NCBI GenBank assembly: GCA_041659205.1
Contig: JBAZYS010000003.1
Span: forward strand, 3,266-67,265
DNA length: 64,000 bases
Direction: 5' to 3'
Origin: Minisyncoccota bacterium
Lineage (GTDB): Bacteria; Patescibacteriota; Minisyncoccia; Phycocordibacterales; UBA9973
Below, piece by piece: positions 26,254 to 56,414 of this stretch. The notes below the pieces were generated by a model that was given only the letters and a program-made list of their open reading frames with translations, did no database searches and had not been told where the DNA came from. The position numbers and the translations under genes were made by a program. Numbering within the stretch: position 1 is the stretch's first letter; each line of letters starts with the position of its first letter.

Positions 26254-26272
26254 GAAAATAAAATTTACATAT

Positions 26273-26288
26273 TTACGCCATGGCGTAA
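26273..26288. promoter_or_regulatory. 16 bp perfect palindrome TTACGCCATGGCGTAA (operator-like), copy 1
   Basis: Perfect dyad; part of a ~38 bp direct repeat whose second copy is at 26696-26733. Confidence 0.5.
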
Positions 26289-26296
26289 ATATGTAT

Positions 26297-26602
26297 TTAG
26301 GTAATATTTTTCGTCATCCATTCTTTATAGGCGCGATTAATTCTTCGCACATCAACTCCAGCGATAAGTGGCGTGGAATAACTATGATGTTTAGAAACTA
26401 AATCATTCACTTCTTCGAGCTTGGATTCAAGAGTGGTCACCATGAGCATCGTCTGGGATACTTCTTTTAATCCCCCTTCCCAGTTATACATAGAATCGAT
26501 AGCCCAATAATCTACACAGACACCGAGCTTTTTGTCTATGATTAGTTTCCCTAAAAGTTGTGCTTCGATAGAATTCGCGCAAGTTGTATATATAAATACC
26601 AT
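26297..26602 (-). CDS. cutA: Divalent-cation tolerance protein CutA
   Basis: 101 aa; CutA1 fold signature (VFIYTTC...AQLL, SMYNWEG). Confidence 0.7.
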   Translation of the reverse strand: MVFIYTTCANSIEAQLLGKLIIDKKLGVCVDYWAIDSMYNWEGGLKEVSQTMLMVTTLESKLEEVNDLVSKHHSYSTPLIAGVDVRRINRAYKEWMTKNIT

Positions 26603-26696
26603 AAAATTAGAGTACGATATTTGATAAACAGAATAGCCCGACCTTTATAGTATTATACTCCTTTTATAATAAACTAGGATATTCTTATATTCCAAT

Positions 26697-26712
26697 ATAC
26701 GCCATGGCGTAT
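26697..26712. promoter_or_regulatory. 16 bp perfect palindrome ATACGCCATGGCGTAT, copy 2, about 90 bp upstream of the cutA start
   Basis: Perfect dyad sharing its 14 bp core TACGCCATGGCGTA with copy 1. Confidence 0.5.
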
Positions 26713-26719
26713 ATGTGTA

Positions 26720-38118: not shown

Positions 38119-39393
38119 TTATATAACAACTCCACCACCCAAGCAAATATCACCATCATAGACAACGATGGATTGGCCAGAGGCCACTAAGGTATTTTTT
38201 GCAAAAATTATCTCAGCTTTTCCTCCAGAAAGAACTTTAACCTTGCAAGGTAAAAATTCTCCATGATAACGAATCTGCGCAATGTAATTTTTGTTCGATT
38301 CAGGAATTCCTGAAATCCAATTTGTGTTATTAATTTCTACACAAAAACTATTTTCAGAAGAGGCTACGGAGCGCGACGGCGTGAGTCTTGAGGAATTTTT
38401 CAACAGAAAAATATCCGGACTCTTTTGAGAATAGTTTTTATTTTGCGATACTATCAAAATATTTTTCTTAATATCTTTTCCGATTACAAAATACGCACCA
38501 TCTGTGGACGTCTTTTGGGTAATTGTAAAACCATGTCGTTCCCCCAAAGTATGAAATACAACTCCATCATGATGGCCAATCGTTTCCCCAATTTCATTTA
38601 CCACTTTGCCTTTTTTAGACTTTATATAGTGTTTTAAAAAATCTTTCAAATCTACCGCTCCTAGAAAACAAATTCCTTGGCTATCTTTCTTCTCGGCAAC
38701 CGGAAGATTAAATTTCTTCGCAAGTTTTCTCACTTTCGTTTTCTTTAAATTACCAATTGGAAATAAAATTTTCTTTAATTGTTCTTGCTTTAGTGTCCAC
38801 AAAAAATAACTTTGATCCTTCGATGGATCTACACCTTTTTTAAGACAAAACAAATTATGTTTTTCGAATACCGACGTTGCTTTAGCAGGCAGGTTGAGAA
38901 AAGCATGATTTGTTTTGTCTTGCTGGCGATGTAAAAATTGTTTTTTTTCGGGAATATCCTGCTTCGCAACGTCACCACTCAAAAAATCAATTTTTACATC
39001 GCCATTCTCCGCATAATGTCCTGTCGCCACAAAATCAGCTCCCATCGCAAGAGCTTTTTTGAGAAATGCACCGAACTTCACTTCTTTATTGCACATCACA
39101 TCAGGATTCGGGGTTCGTCCCAGTTTATATTCACTTATCATATAGTCAGCCACTTCCTTTTTATAAACATCTGCAAGGTCAAAAGTAAGAAATGGAATAT
39201 CTAAAAAAGCAGCCACACGCATGGCGTCACGACGCTCGTCTTCTTCATTACATTCAAGGAAATCTGGATGCCAAGTTTTAATAAAAACTCCCACTACGTC
39301 AAAACCCTGCTTTTTTAACAAAGCAGCTGAGACGGCACTATCTACACCTCCTGATATTCCTACAAATACAGTTTTTTTCGTTAGGTTTTTCAT
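38119..39393 (-). CDS. mnmA: tRNA-specific 2-thiouridylase MnmA (with an insertion of about 50 aa)
   Basis: 424 aa; PP-loop VGISGGVDSAV N-terminus, catalytic Cys region, C-terminal beta-barrel. Confidence 0.8.
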   Translation of the reverse strand: MKNLTKKTVFVGISGGVDSAVSAALLKKQGFDVVGVFIKTWHPDFLECNEEDERRDAMRVAAFLDIPFLTFDLADVYKKEVADYMISEYKLGRTPNPDVMCNKEVKFGAFLKKALAMGADFVATGHYAENGDVKIDFLSGDVAKQDIPEKKQFLHRQQDKTNHAFLNLPAKATSVFEKHNLFCLKKGVDPSKDQSYFLWTLKQEQLKKILFPIGNLKKTKVRKLAKKFNLPVAEKKDSQGICFLGAVDLKDFLKHYIKSKKGKVVNEIGETIGHHDGVVFHTLGERHGFTITQKTSTDGAYFVIGKDIKKNILIVSQNKNYSQKSPDIFLLKNSSRLTPSRSVASSENSFCVEINNTNWISGIPESNKNYIAQIRYHGEFLPCKVKVLSGGKAEIIFAKNTLVASGQSIVVYDGDICLGGGVVI

Positions 39394-39521
39394 ACAATCA
39401 AAATATTAATAAAATAAACTTTTGAAGGGGTTTCGAGGCTGTCGAGCCGAGAATTTCAGGATTTTTTAAGCTTCAAAAAATCCGTACCGAAAAAAGTTTT
39501 ATTTTATTGAATATATTGATA

Positions 39522-47797: not shown

Positions 47798-47942
47798 GCG
47801 TCGGTATAGGGTGTGCAGGAAAAACTATAGTATTGATATAAAGTTCTTATACGTTGAAAAGTAAACATATGCGTCGGTATAGGGTGGTAGGAAAAACTAG
47901 AGTATCGATGTAAAGTTCTAATACGTTGAAAAGTAAATACAT
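47798..47942 (+). repeat. Two tandem ~73 bp copies of the tRNA-Tyr leader plus first ~17 nt of tRNA-Tyr
   Basis: gcgtcggtatagggtgKKMagg aaaaactaKagtatYgatRtaaagttctWatacgttgaaaagtaaaYaYat repeated at 47798 and 47871, then the real tRNA at 47943. Confidence 0.7.
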
Positions 47943-48025
47943 GCGTCGGTGGTAGAGTGGTCAATTACAACAGACTGTAAATCTGTCGCCTTCGGGCTAC
48001 GAAGGTTCGAATCCTTCCCGACGCA
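47943..48025 (+). tRNA. tRNA-Tyr (GTA), long variable arm
   Basis: Acceptor GCGTCGG/CCGACGC, anticodon loop cuGUAaa, T-loop GGTTCGAATCC, discriminator A. Confidence 0.85.
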
Positions 48026-48057: not shown

Positions 48058-48224
48058 TTAATCGGAGAAAGCAAATTTATTTGCTTTCGTGAAGGATGAG
48101 AAAAGCTTTTACCTATATGCTGGAAGTATATGCAAAAGGTATACTGCCCTCGTAGAGGGAGAAATTCCTTCCATTAAAAATTTAAGCTTCTGCTTGGGTT
48201 TTTTAATTTATATCTCGTTACCCT

Positions 48225-52188: not shown

Positions 52189-53523
52189 TCAATTATACCA
52201 TTTTTTTAGCTTTGTCAAAACTTGAGATAAAACTTTAATTGTGTAGTCAATATCTTTCTTTGTAGTCTGCCTGCCCATTGAAAAACGAAGTCCGCCTATC
52301 TCTCTATCTATCTCTGGATGTATTGCTTTTATAACGTATGAGCCTTCTACGTTGGAACTTTTACAAGCACTCTTTGAAGAAGCCATAACACCCTTCGCAG
52401 AAAGTTCTATAACTAAAAGGTCACTTTGAATTTTAGGAAATGTTACGTTCACATTGTTCGGTAATCTATTTTTTAGATCGCCGTTAAATATATGCGGAGC
52501 AAAAGAATGATTTTTGAATGGTCTGGGGATTTTTTCCGAGGACCTGAAAAAATTATTCTTTTGCGAAGCTAATAACTTTTTAAAAAAATAATCACGAAGT
52601 TTTGTTAAGCGTTTGCTTTCTTTTTCTTTAATATCTTGTGCTAATTTTAATGCATTAGAAAATTTCAAAATTTCTGCTAAATTTTCTGTCCCTGGACGTA
52701 ATCCCATTTCTTGGTCTCCCCCACCATATACATTTGCAAGTTTAACCATTTTTCTTTTATAAAGAACTCCGACTTTCCCCCCACCTTCAATCTTCGAACC
52801 AGATAATGAAAGTAAATCCACGCCGAGTCTCTCTACATTAAGATCTAAATAATTAACAGCCTGCACTGCATCAGTATGAAATAAAGGTAAAGAAAATGAA
52901 GGAAATAATTTCTTTGAATGGTCTGGGGATTTTTTCCGAGGACCTGAAAAAAAATTGATTTCCTTCATTTTCTTAAAATGCCTAATCTCTTTTGCGATCT
53001 CACGAATCGTCTGTATTGTGCCTATTTCGTTATTCGCATACATTACCGAAACAAGTATTGTATTGGTCTTAATTTCTTTTTTTATTTTTTTGGGATCCAC
53101 TATTCCATTCTCCTCAACAGGGACAATTGAAATTTCCACAAGTTTTCTTTTTTCTAATAATTTAAAAGTTTCAAGCACTGAGGGATGTTCAATGTTTGTG
53201 GTTATAATGTGCGGAAGGAGTTGTTTGGTAGTTTTTGAAATGCCTTGCGCAGGCTGACGAGCCGAGCAGAGCAATTCGCCAACAGGCGAATATGTGTGCA
53301 TTTCAAAAATTGACCAAACAACTCCTTGTATCGCAAGATTGTTACTTTCTGTACCCCCACTCGTAAAAATTATTTCTTCAGGTCTAGATCCCAAAACACT
53401 CGCCACAGCTTTGCGCGCATTTTGAAGTTTATTTTTTGCATCTACCCCGAGAGAATGAATTGAGCTAGGATTTGCTTCTACGCTAGCAGCGTAATCTAGG
53501 TATATTTTGTTTGATTTAACCAT
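52189..53523 (-). CDS. Cysteine desulfurase (class V aminotransferase, IscS/NifS-like) carrying three in-frame insertions
   Basis: 444 aa; TSGGTESNN, HTDAVQA, SLSGSK(I) PLP-lysine region, C-terminal SACKSS active-site Cys loop; insertions relative to IscS coincide with repeat elements. Confidence 0.8.
   Translation of the reverse strand: MVKSNKIYLDYAASVEANPSSIHSLGVDAKNKLQNARKAVASVLGSRPEEIIFTSGGTESNNLAIQGVVWSIFEMHTYSPVGELLCSARQPAQGISKTTKQLLPHIITTNIEHPSVLETFKLLEKRKLVEISIVPVEENGIVDPKKIKKEIKTNTILVSVMYANNEIGTIQTIREIAKEIRHFKKMKEINFFSGPRKKSPDHSKKLFPSFSLPLFHTDAVQAVNYLDLNVERLGVDLLSLSGSKIEGGGKVGVLYKRKMVKLANVYGGGDQEMGLRPGTENLAEILKFSNALKLAQDIKEKESKRLTKLRDYFFKKLLASQKNNFFRSSEKIPRPFKNHSFAPHIFNGDLKNRLPNNVNVTFPKIQSDLLVIELSAKGVMASSKSACKSSNVEGSYVIKAIHPEIDREIGGLRFSMGRQTTKKDIDYTIKVLSQVLTKLKKWYN
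52499..52564. mobile_element. Palindromic insertion element family A, copy 1 (inside the cysteine desulfurase ORF, in frame)
   Basis: 38 bp core tgaatggtctggggattttttccgaggacctgaaaaaatt flanked by a copy-specific inverted repeat gcaaaagaat/attcttttgc. Confidence 0.6.
52892..52972. mobile_element. Palindromic insertion element family A, copy 2 (inside the cysteine desulfurase ORF, in frame, read in a different frame)
   Basis: Identical 38 bp core (+2 A) flanked by a different inverted repeat gaaaatgaaggaaat/atttccttcattttc. Confidence 0.6.
53215..53327. mobile_element. Palindromic insertion element family B, copy 1 (inside the cysteine desulfurase ORF, in frame)
   Basis: Outer inverted repeat aaggagttgtttggt/accaaacaactcctt; inner tttgaaatgc-cttgcgcaggctgacgagccgagcagagcaa-[hairpin attcgcc aacag ggcgaat]-atgtgtgcatttcaaa. 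Confidence 0.6.
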
Positions 53524-53547
53524 AAAAATAGTATATATTGAAATTGT

Positions 53548-54012
53548 ATGAATACAAAGCTCGAGATAACTTTTTTTGTTTTAAGCGGAATTGCCATTTT
53601 GGGTACTCTTTTCTGTACTATTTGGATTATTGTTACCGAAAAACGCCTTAAAAAGTTTTTTCTTGGTAAAAAAGCAAAAGATTTAGAAGATACAATTTCT
53701 ATTTTGGAAACTGAAATCAACAAATTAAATAAGGCAAAAGAAGAACTTGAAAAAAATATTGTTACAATAAACTCTAAACTTAAAAAAAGTATCAGAGGAC
53801 TTGAGACCATACGTTTCAATCCTTTCCCTGACCAAGGCAGTAACCAGAGCTTTGCTATTGGAATGCTCAATGAAGAAGGTAGCGGCCTAGTAATTTCAAG
53901 TTTATATTCTCGTGAGAGAATGAGTATCTTTGCTAAACCAATAAAAAATGGAAAATCAGAATACGAACTCACTAATGAGGAAAAAGAGGCTCTAGAAAAA
54001 GCAAAGGTATAA
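53548..54012 (+). CDS. DUF4446-like membrane/coiled-coil protein upstream of infB
   Basis: 154 aa; N-terminal TM then coiled coil; 6 bp before infB; preferred over the antisense hydrophobic ORF 53496-54044. Confidence 0.5.
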   Translation: MNTKLEITFFVLSGIAILGTLFCTIWIIVTEKRLKKFFLGKKAKDLEDTISILETEINKLNKAKEELEKNIVTINSKLKKSIRGLETIRFNPFPDQGSNQSFAIGMLNEEGSGLVISSLYSRERMSIFAKPIKNGKSEYELTNEEKEALEKAKV

Positions 54013-54018
54013 AAAATT

Positions 54019-55539
54019 ATGAAAACTGATGAAAAAGAAAACAAAATAATTGTACATCCACCTGTCGTGGCTGTAATGGGACATATTGACCATGGAAAAT
54101 CAACCTTACTTGATTACATCAGGAAAACAAATATTACTGAAACTGAAACTGGAGGAATAACTCAGAGAATTTCTGCTTATGAAGTCGTGCATAAAGATGA
54201 AAATGGGCAAAATAGAAAAATAACTTTTCTAGATACACCGGGCCATGAAGCTTTTTCTAAAATGAGGGAACGGGGTGCAGAGATAGCCGATATTGCAATC
54301 CTCGTCGTCTCCGCAGAAGATGGAGTAAAACCTCAAACGATTGAAGCCTGGAAAACTATAACTGAATCCAAAATTCCCTACATTGTTGCTATAAACAAAA
54401 TAGATAAGCCAGGGGCGAATGTTGAAAAAACAAAAATGGAGTTAGCAGAAAATGAAATCTATCTTGAAAATTATGGAGGGACAGTCCCCTTCACAGAAAT
54501 TTCTGCAAAAGATGGTACGGGTGTAGATGATTTGTTGACGCTCATCTTAGTCTTAGCTGATATGGAAAACCTGACTGGAAACAAAAATGAAGAAGCAGCG
54601 GGTTTTGTAATTGAAGTAAACCTAGACTCAAGACGCGGAATCATGGCGAGTTTGGTTATAAAAAACGGCACAATGAGAAAAGGAATGACCGTGGTTGTAG
54701 AAGACAGCATGTGTTCTACCCGTATCATTGAAAACTTTTTAGGTAAAAGTATAGATGAAGCTACGTTCTCTTCCCCTGTGCGTGTCGTAGGCTTCGACAA
54801 GATGCCTAGAGTGGGAGCACCGTTTAAAACTTTTCAAAAAAAATCAGATGCCATTAAATACACAGAAGATTGGAAAGAAGGAAAAATTGCTGAAAAAACA
54901 AAAAATAATAAAACAAGCAATGAAGAAAATACTAAAAAAATAATACCGATAATATTAAAAGCGGATGTTTCAGGTTCTATTGAGGCTATCGAAAAAGAAA
55001 TAGCTAAAATCAGAAATGATAATGCTGAATTTAAAATTGTTGTAAAAGGCATCGGACCAATCACTGAATCTGATATAAAAGGAGTGTCCCAAGGAGCGGA
55101 TGCAATAGTCATCGGTTTTAACGTTAAAACAGACAAAAGTGCACTCGAAGTCGCCGAAAAAAGAGGCATTACAATCTCCTTTTTTGAAATTATTTACAAA
55201 ATGACCGAATGGCTTGAAGAACAAATGGAAATACGAAGACCAAAGATTGAAACCATGGAAACAACTGGCCAAGCGAAAATTATTCGCGCTTTCAGCCGTA
55301 CTAAAGAACGTCAGATAGTCGGAGGCAAAGTAACTGTGGGTCAAATTAACTTAAATAGCACTGTCAGAATTATGCGCCGTGAATTTGAAATTGGTCGTGC
55401 AAAAATAATTAACTTAGAAAAAAGTAAAGTTAAAACAAGCACCGTCGAGGAGGGTGCTGAGTTCGGAATGATGATTGAATCAAAGATTGAAGTCGTCGCT
55501 GGAGATATATTGGAATCATTCTCCGTAATTCAAAAATAA
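54019..55539 (+). CDS. infB: Translation initiation factor IF-2 (short form starting at the G domain)
   Basis: 506 aa; [28 protein letters not shown]; C-terminal beta-barrel domains. Confidence 0.9.
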
Positions 55540-55540
55540 T

Positions 55541-55873
55541 ATGGGAGAAGAAAATAAAAGAACTGAAAAAGTGTCTAATGCCATCAAGGAGCTCGCTGCT
55601 CAGTTCCTAGGACGCGAGAACAATAGAACTTCTCTCATCACTGTAACTTCTGCCAATGTCTCCCCTGACCTGAAGCGCGCGACTATCTTCATCACAGTCC
55701 TACCTGATTCCAAAGAACATGATGCACTTGAATTCGCAAAAAGAAAAAGAGCAGAACTTCGAGATTTTTTGAAAAAGAATATGCCGATAAAAGTAATCCC
55801 TTTTGTTGACATAATGATTGATAAAGGAGAAAAAAATCGTCAGAAAATTGACGAACTGCTCCGAAATGGTTAA
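55541..55873 (+). CDS. rbfA: Ribosome-binding factor A
   Basis: 110 aa KH-like RbfA; follows infB as in the canonical order. Confidence 0.8.
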   Translation: MGEENKRTEKVSNAIKELAAQFLGRENNRTSLITVTSANVSPDLKRATIFITVLPDSKEHDALEFAKRKRAELRDFLKKNMPIKVIPFVDIMIDKGEKNRQKIDELLRNG

Positions 55874-55875
55874 AC

Positions 55876-55983
55876 TTCTTCAAATAGTCTTTGAAAAATG
55901 CCTTGCGCAGGCTGACGAGCCGAGCAGAGCAAATTTTCAGCAGAAAATTATGTGTGCATTTTGAGAAGAGCTATTTGAAGAAG
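55876..55983. mobile_element. Palindromic insertion element family B, copy 2 (intergenic, right after the rbfA stop)
   Basis: Outer inverted repeat cttcttcaaatag/ctatttgaagaag; same conserved inner cores; central hairpin replaced by the compensatory aattttc-agcag-gaaaatt. Confidence 0.6.
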
Positions 55984-55990
55984 TCTAAAT

Positions 55991-56062
55991 GGCCTGGTAG
56001 CCAAGTGGTAAGGCATTCCTCTGCAAAAGGAATATACGGCGGTTCGATTCCGCCCCAGGCCT
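55991..56062 (+). tRNA. tRNA-Cys (GCA)
   Basis: Acceptor GGCCTGG/CCAGGCC, anticodon loop cuGCAaa, T-loop GGTTCGATTCC, discriminator U. Confidence 0.85.
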
Positions 56063-56123: not shown

Positions 56124-56205
56124 GCCCGGATGGCGGAATTGGTATACGCGCACGACTTAAAATCGTGTCTCGTAAGGGATGTGGGTTCGACTCCCACTCC
56201 GGGCA
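56124..56205 (+). tRNA. tRNA-Leu (TAA), long variable arm
   Basis: Acceptor GCCCGGA/TCCGGGC, anticodon loop cuUAAaa, variable arm, T-loop GGGTTCGACTCCC. Confidence 0.85.
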
Positions 56206-56414
56206 CCGCACGGAAATAAGCAAATTTATTTGCTTATGTGTGGGAGTCGAAAGGATTTTCGTTATTGAGCGGAGCGAAATCGAAAATCACCTGGCTATGT
56301 AATAGCCGACTCCTCCGGGCACACAACTTAATAATTAATTTTGCGCCCTTGGCTGTTTTGGTAGGTCGTTAGATTAGGTAATTAAGTTATGTCGAAGTAG
56401 AATAAAAAATAAAT

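Follow-up and report, generated by a model that had tools for sequence, protein, structure and literature searches.

A dispersed palindromic repeat family of candidate phyla radiation bacteria, probably selfish, with a strand-specific folded core

The locus described here raises the question what kind of sequence can stand as nearly the same hairpin both within a conserved protein gene and in a spacer between genes. The window, that is the whole analysed stretch of 64,000 nucleotides (nt) from a Minisyncoccota bacterium (contig JBAZYS010000003.1 of assembly GCA_041659205.1, positions 3,266 to 67,265), contains two copies of such a hairpin, copy 1 in frame in a cysteine desulfurase gene and copy 2 between rbfA and a tRNA gene. 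We consider it probable that they belong to a dispersed family of selfish palindromic repeats of the candidate phyla radiation (CPR, Patescibacteria), similar in mode to the palindromic elements of Rickettsia and equipped with a strand-specific folded core. Literature searches on CPR bacteria brought up no account of repeats or RNA motifs of this kind, and the hairpin family is apparently undescribed so far.

Both copies had been noticed in a first-pass annotation made from the letters of the window; the observation is real, and the reading given there stands and can be carried further. In the window there are exactly two occurrences of the 31-mer CTTGCGCAGGCTGACGAGCCGAGCAGAGCAA, at 53244-53274 and 55902-55932, and 100 shuffles gave none. 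The conserved cores of that annotation proved identical: the copies share AAATGCCTTGCGCAGGCTGACGAGCCGAGCAGAGCAA and ATGTGTGCATTT exactly, and the block AAATGCC...GCAA as well. As it had described, the central 7-bp stems have no likeness to each other, yet each is perfectly complementary in itself, ATTCGCC/GGCGAAT in copy 1 and AATTTTC/GAAAATT in copy 2. Two measures had to be corrected. The loop on this stem, given as five nucleotides (A-CAG), has four (AACA or AGCA), the first G of the 3' arm having been counted twice, and the distance between the outer repeats, given as 97 bp, is 83 and 82 nt by the annotation's own definition of the repeats. Outer repeats private to each copy are indeed present (53215-53229 with 53313-53327; 55875-55888 with 55971-55984), that of copy 2 with a length of 14 bp, one more than had been listed. 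Copy 1 lies within the 444-aa Aminotran_5 frame, as had been proposed, but on the antisense strand of the gene, and the frame stays open, reading ...HTYSPVGELLCSARQPAQGISK... Copy 2 was correctly placed immediately 3' of rbfA: it starts one base past the stop codon (55871-55873) and ends 5 nt short of the tRNA gene at 55991.

Read as RNA, the plus strand of both copies folds into a three-way junction of a long closing stem (P1), a hairpin P2 and a variable hairpin P3. The predicted folding energies are -59.3 kcal/mol for copy 1 (z -9.8) and -44.8 kcal/mol for copy 2 (z -6.5), and for neither copy was any of 200 shuffles equally stable. Bit scores in the following list refer to R1, a covariance model built from alignment A4, which holds element copies only; the window was searched with it without filters.

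53215-53327, plus strand: copy 1, whole hairpin element, 113 nt (sequence, fold and R1 with 98 bits, E 3e-25)
53215-53229, plus strand: left outer, locus-specific arm of copy 1, downstream in gene orientation and the newly made arm; it reads ...ACCAAACAACTCCTT in gene orientation and codes for T-K-Q-L-L
53313-53327, plus strand: right outer arm of copy 1, AAGGAGTTGTTTGGT in gene orientation, coding for the host's (Q)G-V-V-W
53232-53243, plus strand: 5' strand of the inner P1 of copy 1, TTTTTGAAATGC, paired with 53298-53309 (alignments A3 and A4)
53245-53269, plus strand: P2 of copy 1, UUGC-GCA-GGCU-GACG-AGCC-GA-GCAG, look-alike of 23S rRNA helix 86
53271-53295, plus strand: P3 of copy 1, with a 3-bp base, a bulged A, the variable 7-bp stem and the AACA loop, in the position of helix 87
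55874-55985, plus strand: copy 2, whole hairpin element between the rbfA stop and the tRNA gene (R1 91.9 bits)
55875-55888, plus strand: outer arm of copy 2, ACTTCTTCAAATAG, paired with 55971-55984
55903-55927, plus strand: P2 of copy 2, helix 86 look-alike with the same sequence as in copy 1
55929-55953, plus strand: P3 of copy 2, stem AAUUUUC/GAAAAUU and loop AGCA

The family is large. A genome scan, with one genome per species and a 20-mer from P2 as query, gave 30 loci, 23 of which were copies of the element and 7 were 23S rRNA genes. A metagenome scan, in which the search pattern did not fix the tip stem of P2, gave at least 120 loci; L038, L073 and L153 were chance matches to the pattern and were left out. 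Many matches came from groundwater, for example of the Hainich and Rifle sites. Together the scans put the family at no fewer than about 150 copies. All non-rRNA matches listed were from CPR bacteria, the hosts among them being Paceibacteria, Nomurabacteria, Zambryskibacteria, Saccharibacteria and Minisyncoccia, and the 23 copies of the genome scan came from these same groups. A scan of viral contigs gave no match, and a phage origin is without evidence. The core unit measures about 83-100 nt, whole hairpins about 108-113 nt. P1 is layered: its inner 12-19 bp are borne by the element and specific for subfamilies, recurring at unrelated loci (for example ATAGTCTTTGAAAAATGC in the subfamily of copy 2 and CACAGGTTTTGCAAGA in a GC-richer subfamily), and its outermost 10-15 bp are specific for the locus.

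The three-way-junction structure was scored on alignment A4 with 124 distinct copies. The aligned cells were paired to 90.9 %, where shuffles reached 71.0 % and slid registers no more than 55 %, and the covariation score was 0.525 versus 0.18 in shuffles and at most 0.17 in slid registers. The tip stem of P2 (P2b) was paired to 98 % with double changes in all four pairs, occurring among others as GGCU/AGCC, GGCC/GGCC, GCGC/GCGC, GCAC/GUGC, GAUU/AAUC and GUCC/GGAC. In P3, 99.2 % of the cells were paired and 8 of 10 pairs had changed on both sides, so that the P2 tip and P3 together present double changes in 12 of 14 base pairs. The inner P1 strand TTTTTGAAATGC of copy 1, borne by the element, is semi-conserved throughout the family, with double changes in 11 of the 12 pairs of this helix. 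The first-pass annotation had argued from two copies that the fold is under selection, and had named additional copies without hairpin complementarity as the observation that would speak against it; the further copies keep the complementarity and bear the argument out. The covariance-model search that it had suggested added two diverged copies to the window, making four members of the family in 64 kb:

38343-38439, plus strand, antisense to mnmA: copy 3, diverged member, in frame in the mnmA linker (R1 match 38349-38432, 52.7 bits, E 2e-12; fold)
39406-39510, plus strand: copy 4, more diverged and intergenic (R1 match 39415-39499, 27.3 bits, E 3e-5; sequence and fold)

Each of these has a long private outer stem. 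P2 of copy 4 reads UUC-GA-GGCU-GUCG-AGCC-GA-GAA, with the symmetric GA/GA loop found in rRNA helix 86. From copies 3 and 4 it is seen that the basal stem and the tetraloop of P2 can themselves vary.

P2 is a look-alike of 23S rRNA helix 86, and P3 stands in the position of helix 87 (H87). The seven rRNA loci with the exact P2 20-mer were 23S rRNA genes of Chloroflexi, of a metagenome-assembled genome of Aquificaceae and of an alphaproteobacterium; the large-subunit rRNA identity of one of them (L030) was confirmed by Rfam. The best R1 match in the rrnH operon of E. coli was 23S nt 2347-2370, CUGCG-AGCGUGACGGCGCGAGCAG (E 0.012), which corresponds position by position with P2; as the seven loci had been chosen by the 20-mer, this match is the only independent one. 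These nucleotides form helix 86 in the standard numbering. The basal stem UUGC/GCAG of P2 compares with CUGC/GCAG in the rRNA, and both have the G.A/A.G internal loop, a covarying 4-bp stem and the GACG tetraloop, then one unpaired purine and a second hairpin; in the 23S loci P3 aligns with this next small hairpin, H87. The differences are equally distinct. Element copies reside in protein genes and spacers, and the window has no rRNA; the internal loop of P2 contains one base more, a bulged C; the 3-bp GAAA hairpin of the rRNA corresponds in P3 to a hairpin of 10 bp with a loop of the ANCA type; and in place of H82/H83 a long local stem closes the junction. In the ribosome, H82-H87 are part of the central protuberance (PMC9687910), and the N-terminus of the protein bL27 lies among H38, H81, H85, H86 and H87 (PMC11354259).

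Several features distinguish the two strands. The base of P2 is a U.G pair in 123 of 123 distinct sequences, which is A.C on the other strand; the base of P3 is a G.U or G-C pair, G.U in 59 of the 123; and the mismatches in P1 comprise 105 G.U versus 48 A.C. As RNA the plus strand of copies 1 and 2 is more stable than the minus strand by 6-7 kcal/mol; as DNA both strands fold equally well. The orientation of the copies is random. Between co-directional genes, 21 copies had the direction of host transcription and 20 the opposite one, within open reading frames (ORFs) 21 were sense and 26 antisense, neighbouring copies were opposed as often as aligned, and at one orthologous site the element was flipped. 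A cis-acting 3'-untranslated-region RNA and a lagging-strand bias of the IS200/IS605 kind were dropped, for the orientation tests revealed no bias. These results suggest that a strand-specific fold is selected, but neither in host transcripts nor on a fixed replication strand, and a recognition step in a single-stranded propagation intermediate appears to fit better than a cis-acting mRNA element.

Comparison of orthologous sites showed that copies are gained, lost, inverted and nested, and the insertion polymorphism whose absence would have spoken against the first-pass annotation was found at both of its loci. The desulfurase site of copy 1 is filled in the window and in L010, L031 and L032 and empty in L033, where the codons read ...GGT GTT GTT TGG GCT TGG CAG GGA AAA GGA TTG CCA CAC... 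The site between rbfA and the tRNA gene is filled in the window and in L025, the latter with compensatory changes in the outer stem of copy 2; it is inverted in L032 and empty in L155, and in L156 a lone 5' arm (ACTTATTTGAAATAGTCTTT) is followed directly by the tRNA. In L156 and L157 this 5' arm resembles that of copy 2, and the core is absent. The inverted element of L032 (315-435) has a 45-nt A+T-rich hairpin in place of the P2 tip (R1 54.5 bits). In L010, the nearest relative with an 87 % identical desulfurase, the place of copy 2 is taken by an unrelated 90-nt insert with the palindrome CACCCTCTCCTTCATAAGGAGAGGGTTAGGTG. In MnmA the Pfam domains stop at residue 317 and resume at 353 (PRC-barrel / C-terminal domains), and copy 3 occupies this linker. 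Its peptide YSQKSPDIFLLKNSSRLxPSRSVASxxNSFC is present in most close MnmA homologues and missing from P0213, P0185, P0217 and P0189; only the two arms are left in P0146. Small hairpins are nested inside P3 in L096 and L126. In a GC-richer lineage, independent copies of opposite orientation entered the same two desulfurase loops (L105, L041). Copies were seen to persist only where they are harmless: between genes, often overlapping a stop codon, or in protein loops and linkers with a stop-free frame of suitable length.

Essential genes are often occupied in frame, and the filter on copies inside genes is visible in P3. Open frames of 200 codons or more enclose 37 of 127 unique copies (about 30 %), 23 of them antisense and 14 sense. 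These copies use three of the six reading frames, which read LAQxDxxSRAIxQQxxMR, HTYSPxGELLCSARQPAQGISK and THIFLLKNCSARxVxLRKA. P3 variants that start with AAT or AAA are common between genes and give TAA in the main antisense frame; variants that avoid this TAA (ATT or ATC) were found in 31 of 37 copies inside ORFs versus 14 of 90 intergenic copies. This enrichment is expected if the insert is translated by read-through, as the filter would be pointless for an insert that is excised. To judge from their open frames, in-gene copies are read through as an extra peptide and not spliced out, with a predicted junction peptide ...EMHTYSPVGELLCSAR... When the window protein is aligned to cysteine desulfurases of solved structure, its three inserts stay as unaligned extra segments between conserved blocks; in the alignment to PDB 9wep, query residues 70-93, 182-213 and about 317-345 have no counterpart. 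For the desulfurase, AlphaFold gave a model with a mean pLDDT (predicted local distance difference test) of 42, too poor for use, and sequence alignment to solved structures took its place. Close desulfurase homologues measure 379-456 aa, a spread that results from four or five insertion hot spots with several unrelated peptide families. Even within coding sequence the stems are held paired by compensatory change: between desulfurase orthologues P3 changed from ATTCGCC/GGCGAAT to ATTCGTC/GACGAAT. The host genes of copies 1 and 2 are:

52189-53523, minus strand: cysteine desulfurase (Aminotran_5), 444 aa, with copy 1 and two copies of a different palindromic family
55541-55873, plus strand: rbfA, upstream of copy 2 (Pfam RBFA, E 5e-15)

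The different palindromic family in the desulfurase gene consists of two 100 % identical 40-nt cores (TTTGAATGGTCTGGGGATTTTTTCCGAGGACCTGAAAAAA) at 52513-52552 and 52913-52952, with arms at about 52499-52566 and 52890-52974. Each has a private outer inverted repeat, the same architecture as in the hairpin family. The cores are read in two frames, as FFSGPRKKSPDHS and FFRSSEKIPRPFK, and related peptides (FLNGLAGVGDPENRGPEKK, FFRSSDPRVPLPARPFKNL) occupy the hot spots in many desulfurase homologues. In mnmA, a 24-nt inverted repeat of 96 % complementarity (38924-38947 / 38981-39004) lies in a second length-variable segment (A5 columns about 130-190) and is probably an in-frame palindromic insert of a third family.

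The outer arms of copy 1 record how they arose. In gene orientation the upstream arm GGAGTTGTTTGG is formed by host codons for G-V-V-W; the codons GGT GTT GTT TGG are also present in the empty site of L033, and alignment A2 shows G67 without exception. Nothing in that empty site corresponds to the downstream arm ACCAAACAACTCC. Since one arm is present in the empty site and the other is not, an inverted copy of the host flank has been written in, replacing about six loop codons. The first-pass annotation had left it between insertion into local palindromes and their generation; for copy 1, generation is favoured. The arms also co-vary in the orthologues L031 and L032. GTT/AAC became ATT/AAT, a change of V to I on one side and of L to F on the other, and TTTGG/CCAAA became TCTGG/CCAGA; half-finished changes (T12C in L031, T8C in L032) are G.U pairs on the plus strand. 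Many GC-richer copies among L034-L153 and elsewhere (e.g., L040, L051, L112, L116, L026) have the same motif on both sides, GAGCGAR ... CGAGCGA, and in one AT-rich subfamily a GAGCGA-type motif stands right at the junction (CCGAGCGUGCC...GUGCUAAGCGAGG). The motif could form tandem G.A/A.G pairs on either side of a GC step, and it may be a conserved non-Watson-Crick module, an older invaded element or a target preference. The flanking GAGCGA does not vary from locus to locus and is therefore no random target-site duplication.

These results are probably best explained by a selfish repeat family with the following mode of propagation. The conserved strand-specific core would serve as recognition module for a propagating factor that acts via a single-stranded DNA or RNA intermediate. 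Intra-hairpin template switching is a known route of quasi-palindrome correction; during replication or repair it may perfect and extend the arms, and would explain both their perfection and their outward growth. In the outermost base pairs of copy 1, an inverted copy of the adjacent host codons was written onto the other side. The likeness to helix 86 might reflect descent from a fragment of rDNA or the use of an rRNA-binding protein. It is rather doubtful that the family is a bacterial counterpart of an rRNA-derived short interspersed element, in which the H86-H87 mimic would recruit a ribosomal or rRNA-handling protein for propagation, and an inverted copy of the host flank would be written on integration or shortly afterwards. 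If so, each copy would acquire a private stem complementary to its own locus, and mobility would be marked by an inverted instead of a direct target duplication. The helix-86 mimicry and the host-derived inverted arm are the two leads to a mechanism of propagation.

A number of observations weigh against the selfish reading. Neither a transposase nor a reverse transcriptase nor an autonomous partner was present beside any copy in the at least about 150 short loci, and target-site duplications did not come to light. A search of the loci for a longer, autonomous form, in which an ORF would separate the two halves of the core, yielded only the small hairpins nested in L096 and L126 and, in L147, a copy that is truncated or in tandem. 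The core is extremely conserved across deep CPR lineages, and non-Watson-Crick modules are conserved (the GA/GA loop; GAGCGA x CGAGCG in P1); both would also fit an RNA of benefit to the host. The invariance of CCTTGC, GACG and GAGCAGAG in A4 is partly imposed by the search patterns. The evidence for host-derived arms is clean at one site only, that of copy 1: in mnmA the inner arms have no host counterpart and just the terminal A-run and T-run match host codons, and at the rbfA site a remnant and an ancestral state look alike. That the inserts are translated is deduced from open frames, and template switching is our proposal for these arms.

Four other explanations were weighed. The family may be a functional structured RNA, a transcribed H86-H87 mimic that binds a ribosomal or assembly protein (e.g., bL27) or an RNase as a decoy, sensor or processing signal, its dispersal being secondary. 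The extent of the mimicry, in which P2 follows helix 86 even in its GA/GA loop and GACG tetraloop and P3 takes the place of H87, would agree with this, as would the position of the bL27 N-terminus among these helices, the strong covariation in every variable stem, the tandem-G.A module conserved in P1, and the G.U pairs kept on one strand together with the better RNA fold of the plus strand. A transcribed function is difficult to reconcile, however, with the random orientation and the flipped orthologous copy; copies are freely lost or cut to their arms, no link to ribosomal-protein genes was seen, no promoter- or terminator-like signal is tied to the element, and no Rfam family matched, so we regard a host-serving RNA as rather unlikely. 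At the other extreme, the element could be purely a palindrome or cruciform of double-stranded DNA, either a site of protein binding or recombination or something left over from replication, with no selection on a single-strand fold; the core would be alike through recent copying and the stems paired through hairpin-templated repair that homogenises the arms. The random orientation and the about equal folding of both strands as DNA suit this reading, and so does the variable part of P3 with 877 Watson-Crick pairs, 1 G.U and 8 A.C, the same pattern that homogenisation of arms would give. But the invariant U.G and frequent G.U pairs are A.C mismatches on the opposite strand, and in P1 G.U outnumbers A.C by 105 to 48. 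Asymmetric features are kept as well: a C bulges out of P2 and an A out of P3, and the GA/GA loop and the bases at the junction are likewise conserved. The unpaired bases are fixed while P2b and P3 vary, a sign of selection and not of recency, and the core is kept in orthologous copies whose host desulfurases are about 70 % identical. A double-stranded palindrome is therefore very unlikely to be the whole account.

The outer repeats may, alternatively, be older than the element: a unit of about 97 nt would enter the centre of terminator hairpins, older palindromic elements or quasi-palindromes of an A-run and a T-run, and no flank would be copied. Copy 2 and many intergenic copies stand directly 3' of stop codons, where hairpins are expected, nested arrangements occur, the loci are hot spots of several unrelated palindromic families, and the outermost AAAAA / TTTTT of the mnmA copy are host K and F codons on both sides. 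The empty site of L033, however, has no palindrome that matches the 15-bp arms of copy 1, only the G-V-V-W side, and the arms differ from terminator stems: they are much longer, with a median of about 29 paired positions, and richer in A+T, have no T-run behind them and are not called by a terminator scan. Entry into pre-existing palindromes is considered unlikely. The idea of the first-pass annotation that the element might be a self-cleaving ribozyme, extended here to a small intron-like element excised from transcripts to leave host proteins without insert, found its basis in the three-way-junction architecture and in the likeness of CUGACGA to the hammerhead box CUGANGA. This box is situated in the loop and stem of P2 and not at the junction, where a GAAA element is also missing, and it is variable in the family, its closing pair 27-32 being C-G in 75 and U-A in 44 of 123 copies. 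No ribozyme family was matched even at E values up to 10. In-ORF copies always keep the frame and avoid stops, which would be unnecessary for an excised insert; this filter on frame and stop codons largely refutes the reading, and we consider it extremely improbable. The selfish repeat family is accordingly kept as the preferred reading.

CPR genomes are viewed as streamlined, yet conserved proteins are peppered here with repeat insertions that are predicted to be translated. Together with two or more further palindromic families found in these genes, such insertions inflate and diversify protein lengths (379-456 aa in one desulfurase clade), and in-gene repeats can confound annotation, alignment and structure prediction. 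A set of at least about 150 covarying copies, many under a coding and a folding constraint at once, allows the study of compensatory evolution in coding sequence.

Further repeats were observed in the window and its relatives. A 42-nt direct repeat, 79 % identical, stands just 3' of tRNA genes (48069-48110 and 56218-56259) and opens with the hairpin AAGCAAATTTATTTGCTT; it may be a terminator or processing hairpin of tRNA operons. A weak R1 match at 56183-56253 overlaps it. A 62-nt tandem direct repeat (47817-47878 and 47889-47950, 90 % identical, period 72 nt) reaches into the start of a tRNA (47943-48025). Two 34-nt segments 386 nt apart (26266-26299 and 26686-26719) are each palindromic around GCCATGGC (TACATATTTACGCCATGGCGTAAATATGTA...), and R1 gave weak hairpin matches at 26264-26297. 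In L033, the locus with the empty desulfurase site, a gene with a faint LAGLIDADG_3 match (1-206) lies beside the tRNA cluster downstream of rbfA.

Among known classes of structured elements, several were tried and rejected. At gathering thresholds, Rfam 15 identified only tRNAs in the whole window and no rRNA, and at E values up to 10 it gave for copies 1 and 2 only weak generic matches to miRNA hairpins. A hammerhead reading of CUGACGAG fails on position and conservation, the junction strands being C, A and GU. An intrinsic terminator was rejected as the scan called neither copy and no T-run follows the arms; the scan for promoters and terminators revealed no signal tied to the elements. Compared with integron attC sites the pattern is reversed, with a conserved centre and variable outer arms, and no integrase context was seen.

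Miniature inverted-repeat transposable elements (MITEs) and small bacterial repeats such as Correia/NEMIS, ERIC/IRU and the QMITEs of Coxiella are dealt with in PMC5896051. Like them, the hairpin family is short, non-autonomous, hairpin-forming and multi-copy and can reside in ORFs and alter proteins, and MITEs have conserved inverted termini per subfamily, as has the GC-richer subfamily with P1 CACAGGTTTTGCAAGA. Unlike MITEs, the family is conserved at the centre and not at the termini, its stems covary instead of being conserved, and no related insertion sequence was found in the at least about 150 loci. Inner P1 is conserved within subfamilies, and neither a transposase gene nor a long version occurred among these loci. 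At the junctions of copies 1 and 2 the flank repeats are inverted, not direct. A classical MITE was rejected, as neither a target-site duplication nor a cognate transposase was found in the loci covered. Repetitive extragenic palindromes (REPs), their mosaic arrangements (bacterial interspersed mosaic elements, BIMEs) and the REP-associated tyrosine transposases (RAYTs), treated in PMC3733652, share palindromes that fold as single strands and a strand-specific recognition. REPs are, however, simple hairpins that measure 20-40 bp, bear GTAG or CGTC as terminal tag and are intergenic only; in the hairpin family CGTC arises only as complement of the P2 loop, and a RAYT-like gene was not seen. A REP/BIME assignment was rejected, the element being a 110-nt three-way junction with 30 % of its copies intragenic.

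Mobile palindromic GC clusters are found in yeast mitochondria. Palindromic repeats of the organelle genomes of Volvox are described in PMC2670323. Organelle repeats of this kind are likewise selfish hairpins that enter coding regions in frame, where variable segments of the protein tolerate them, but they are organellar, much shorter and without a conserved multi-helix core.

The closest likeness in mode is to the Rickettsia palindromic elements (RPE), reportedly described by Ogata et al. in 2000 and reviewed in PMC3184786 and PMC2229807. RPE are palindromic repeats of about 100-150 bp, dispersed in the small genomes of bacteria that depend on a host and located between genes and in frame in conserved protein genes, where they add a peptide segment in loops, and they have no transposase of their own. 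The hairpin family corresponds with 108-113 nt and four copies in 64 kb, likewise showed no transposase beside its copies, and has a similar predicted in-frame occupancy in desulfurase loops, in the mnmA linker and in 37 of 127 copies within long open frames. The hosts belong to different phyla, Paceibacterota here and Rickettsiales for RPE, and a sequence relationship is not known; because of its host in the Paceibacterota the family is treated as an analogue of RPE and not as a member. It further differs in its locus-specific outer stems, partly copied from the host flank, and in inversion at a fixed site. The most economical view is an element with the mode of the Rickettsia palindromic elements but outside their membership, set apart by a conserved, covarying three-way-junction core, a look-alike of helix 86 and host-derived inverted arms.

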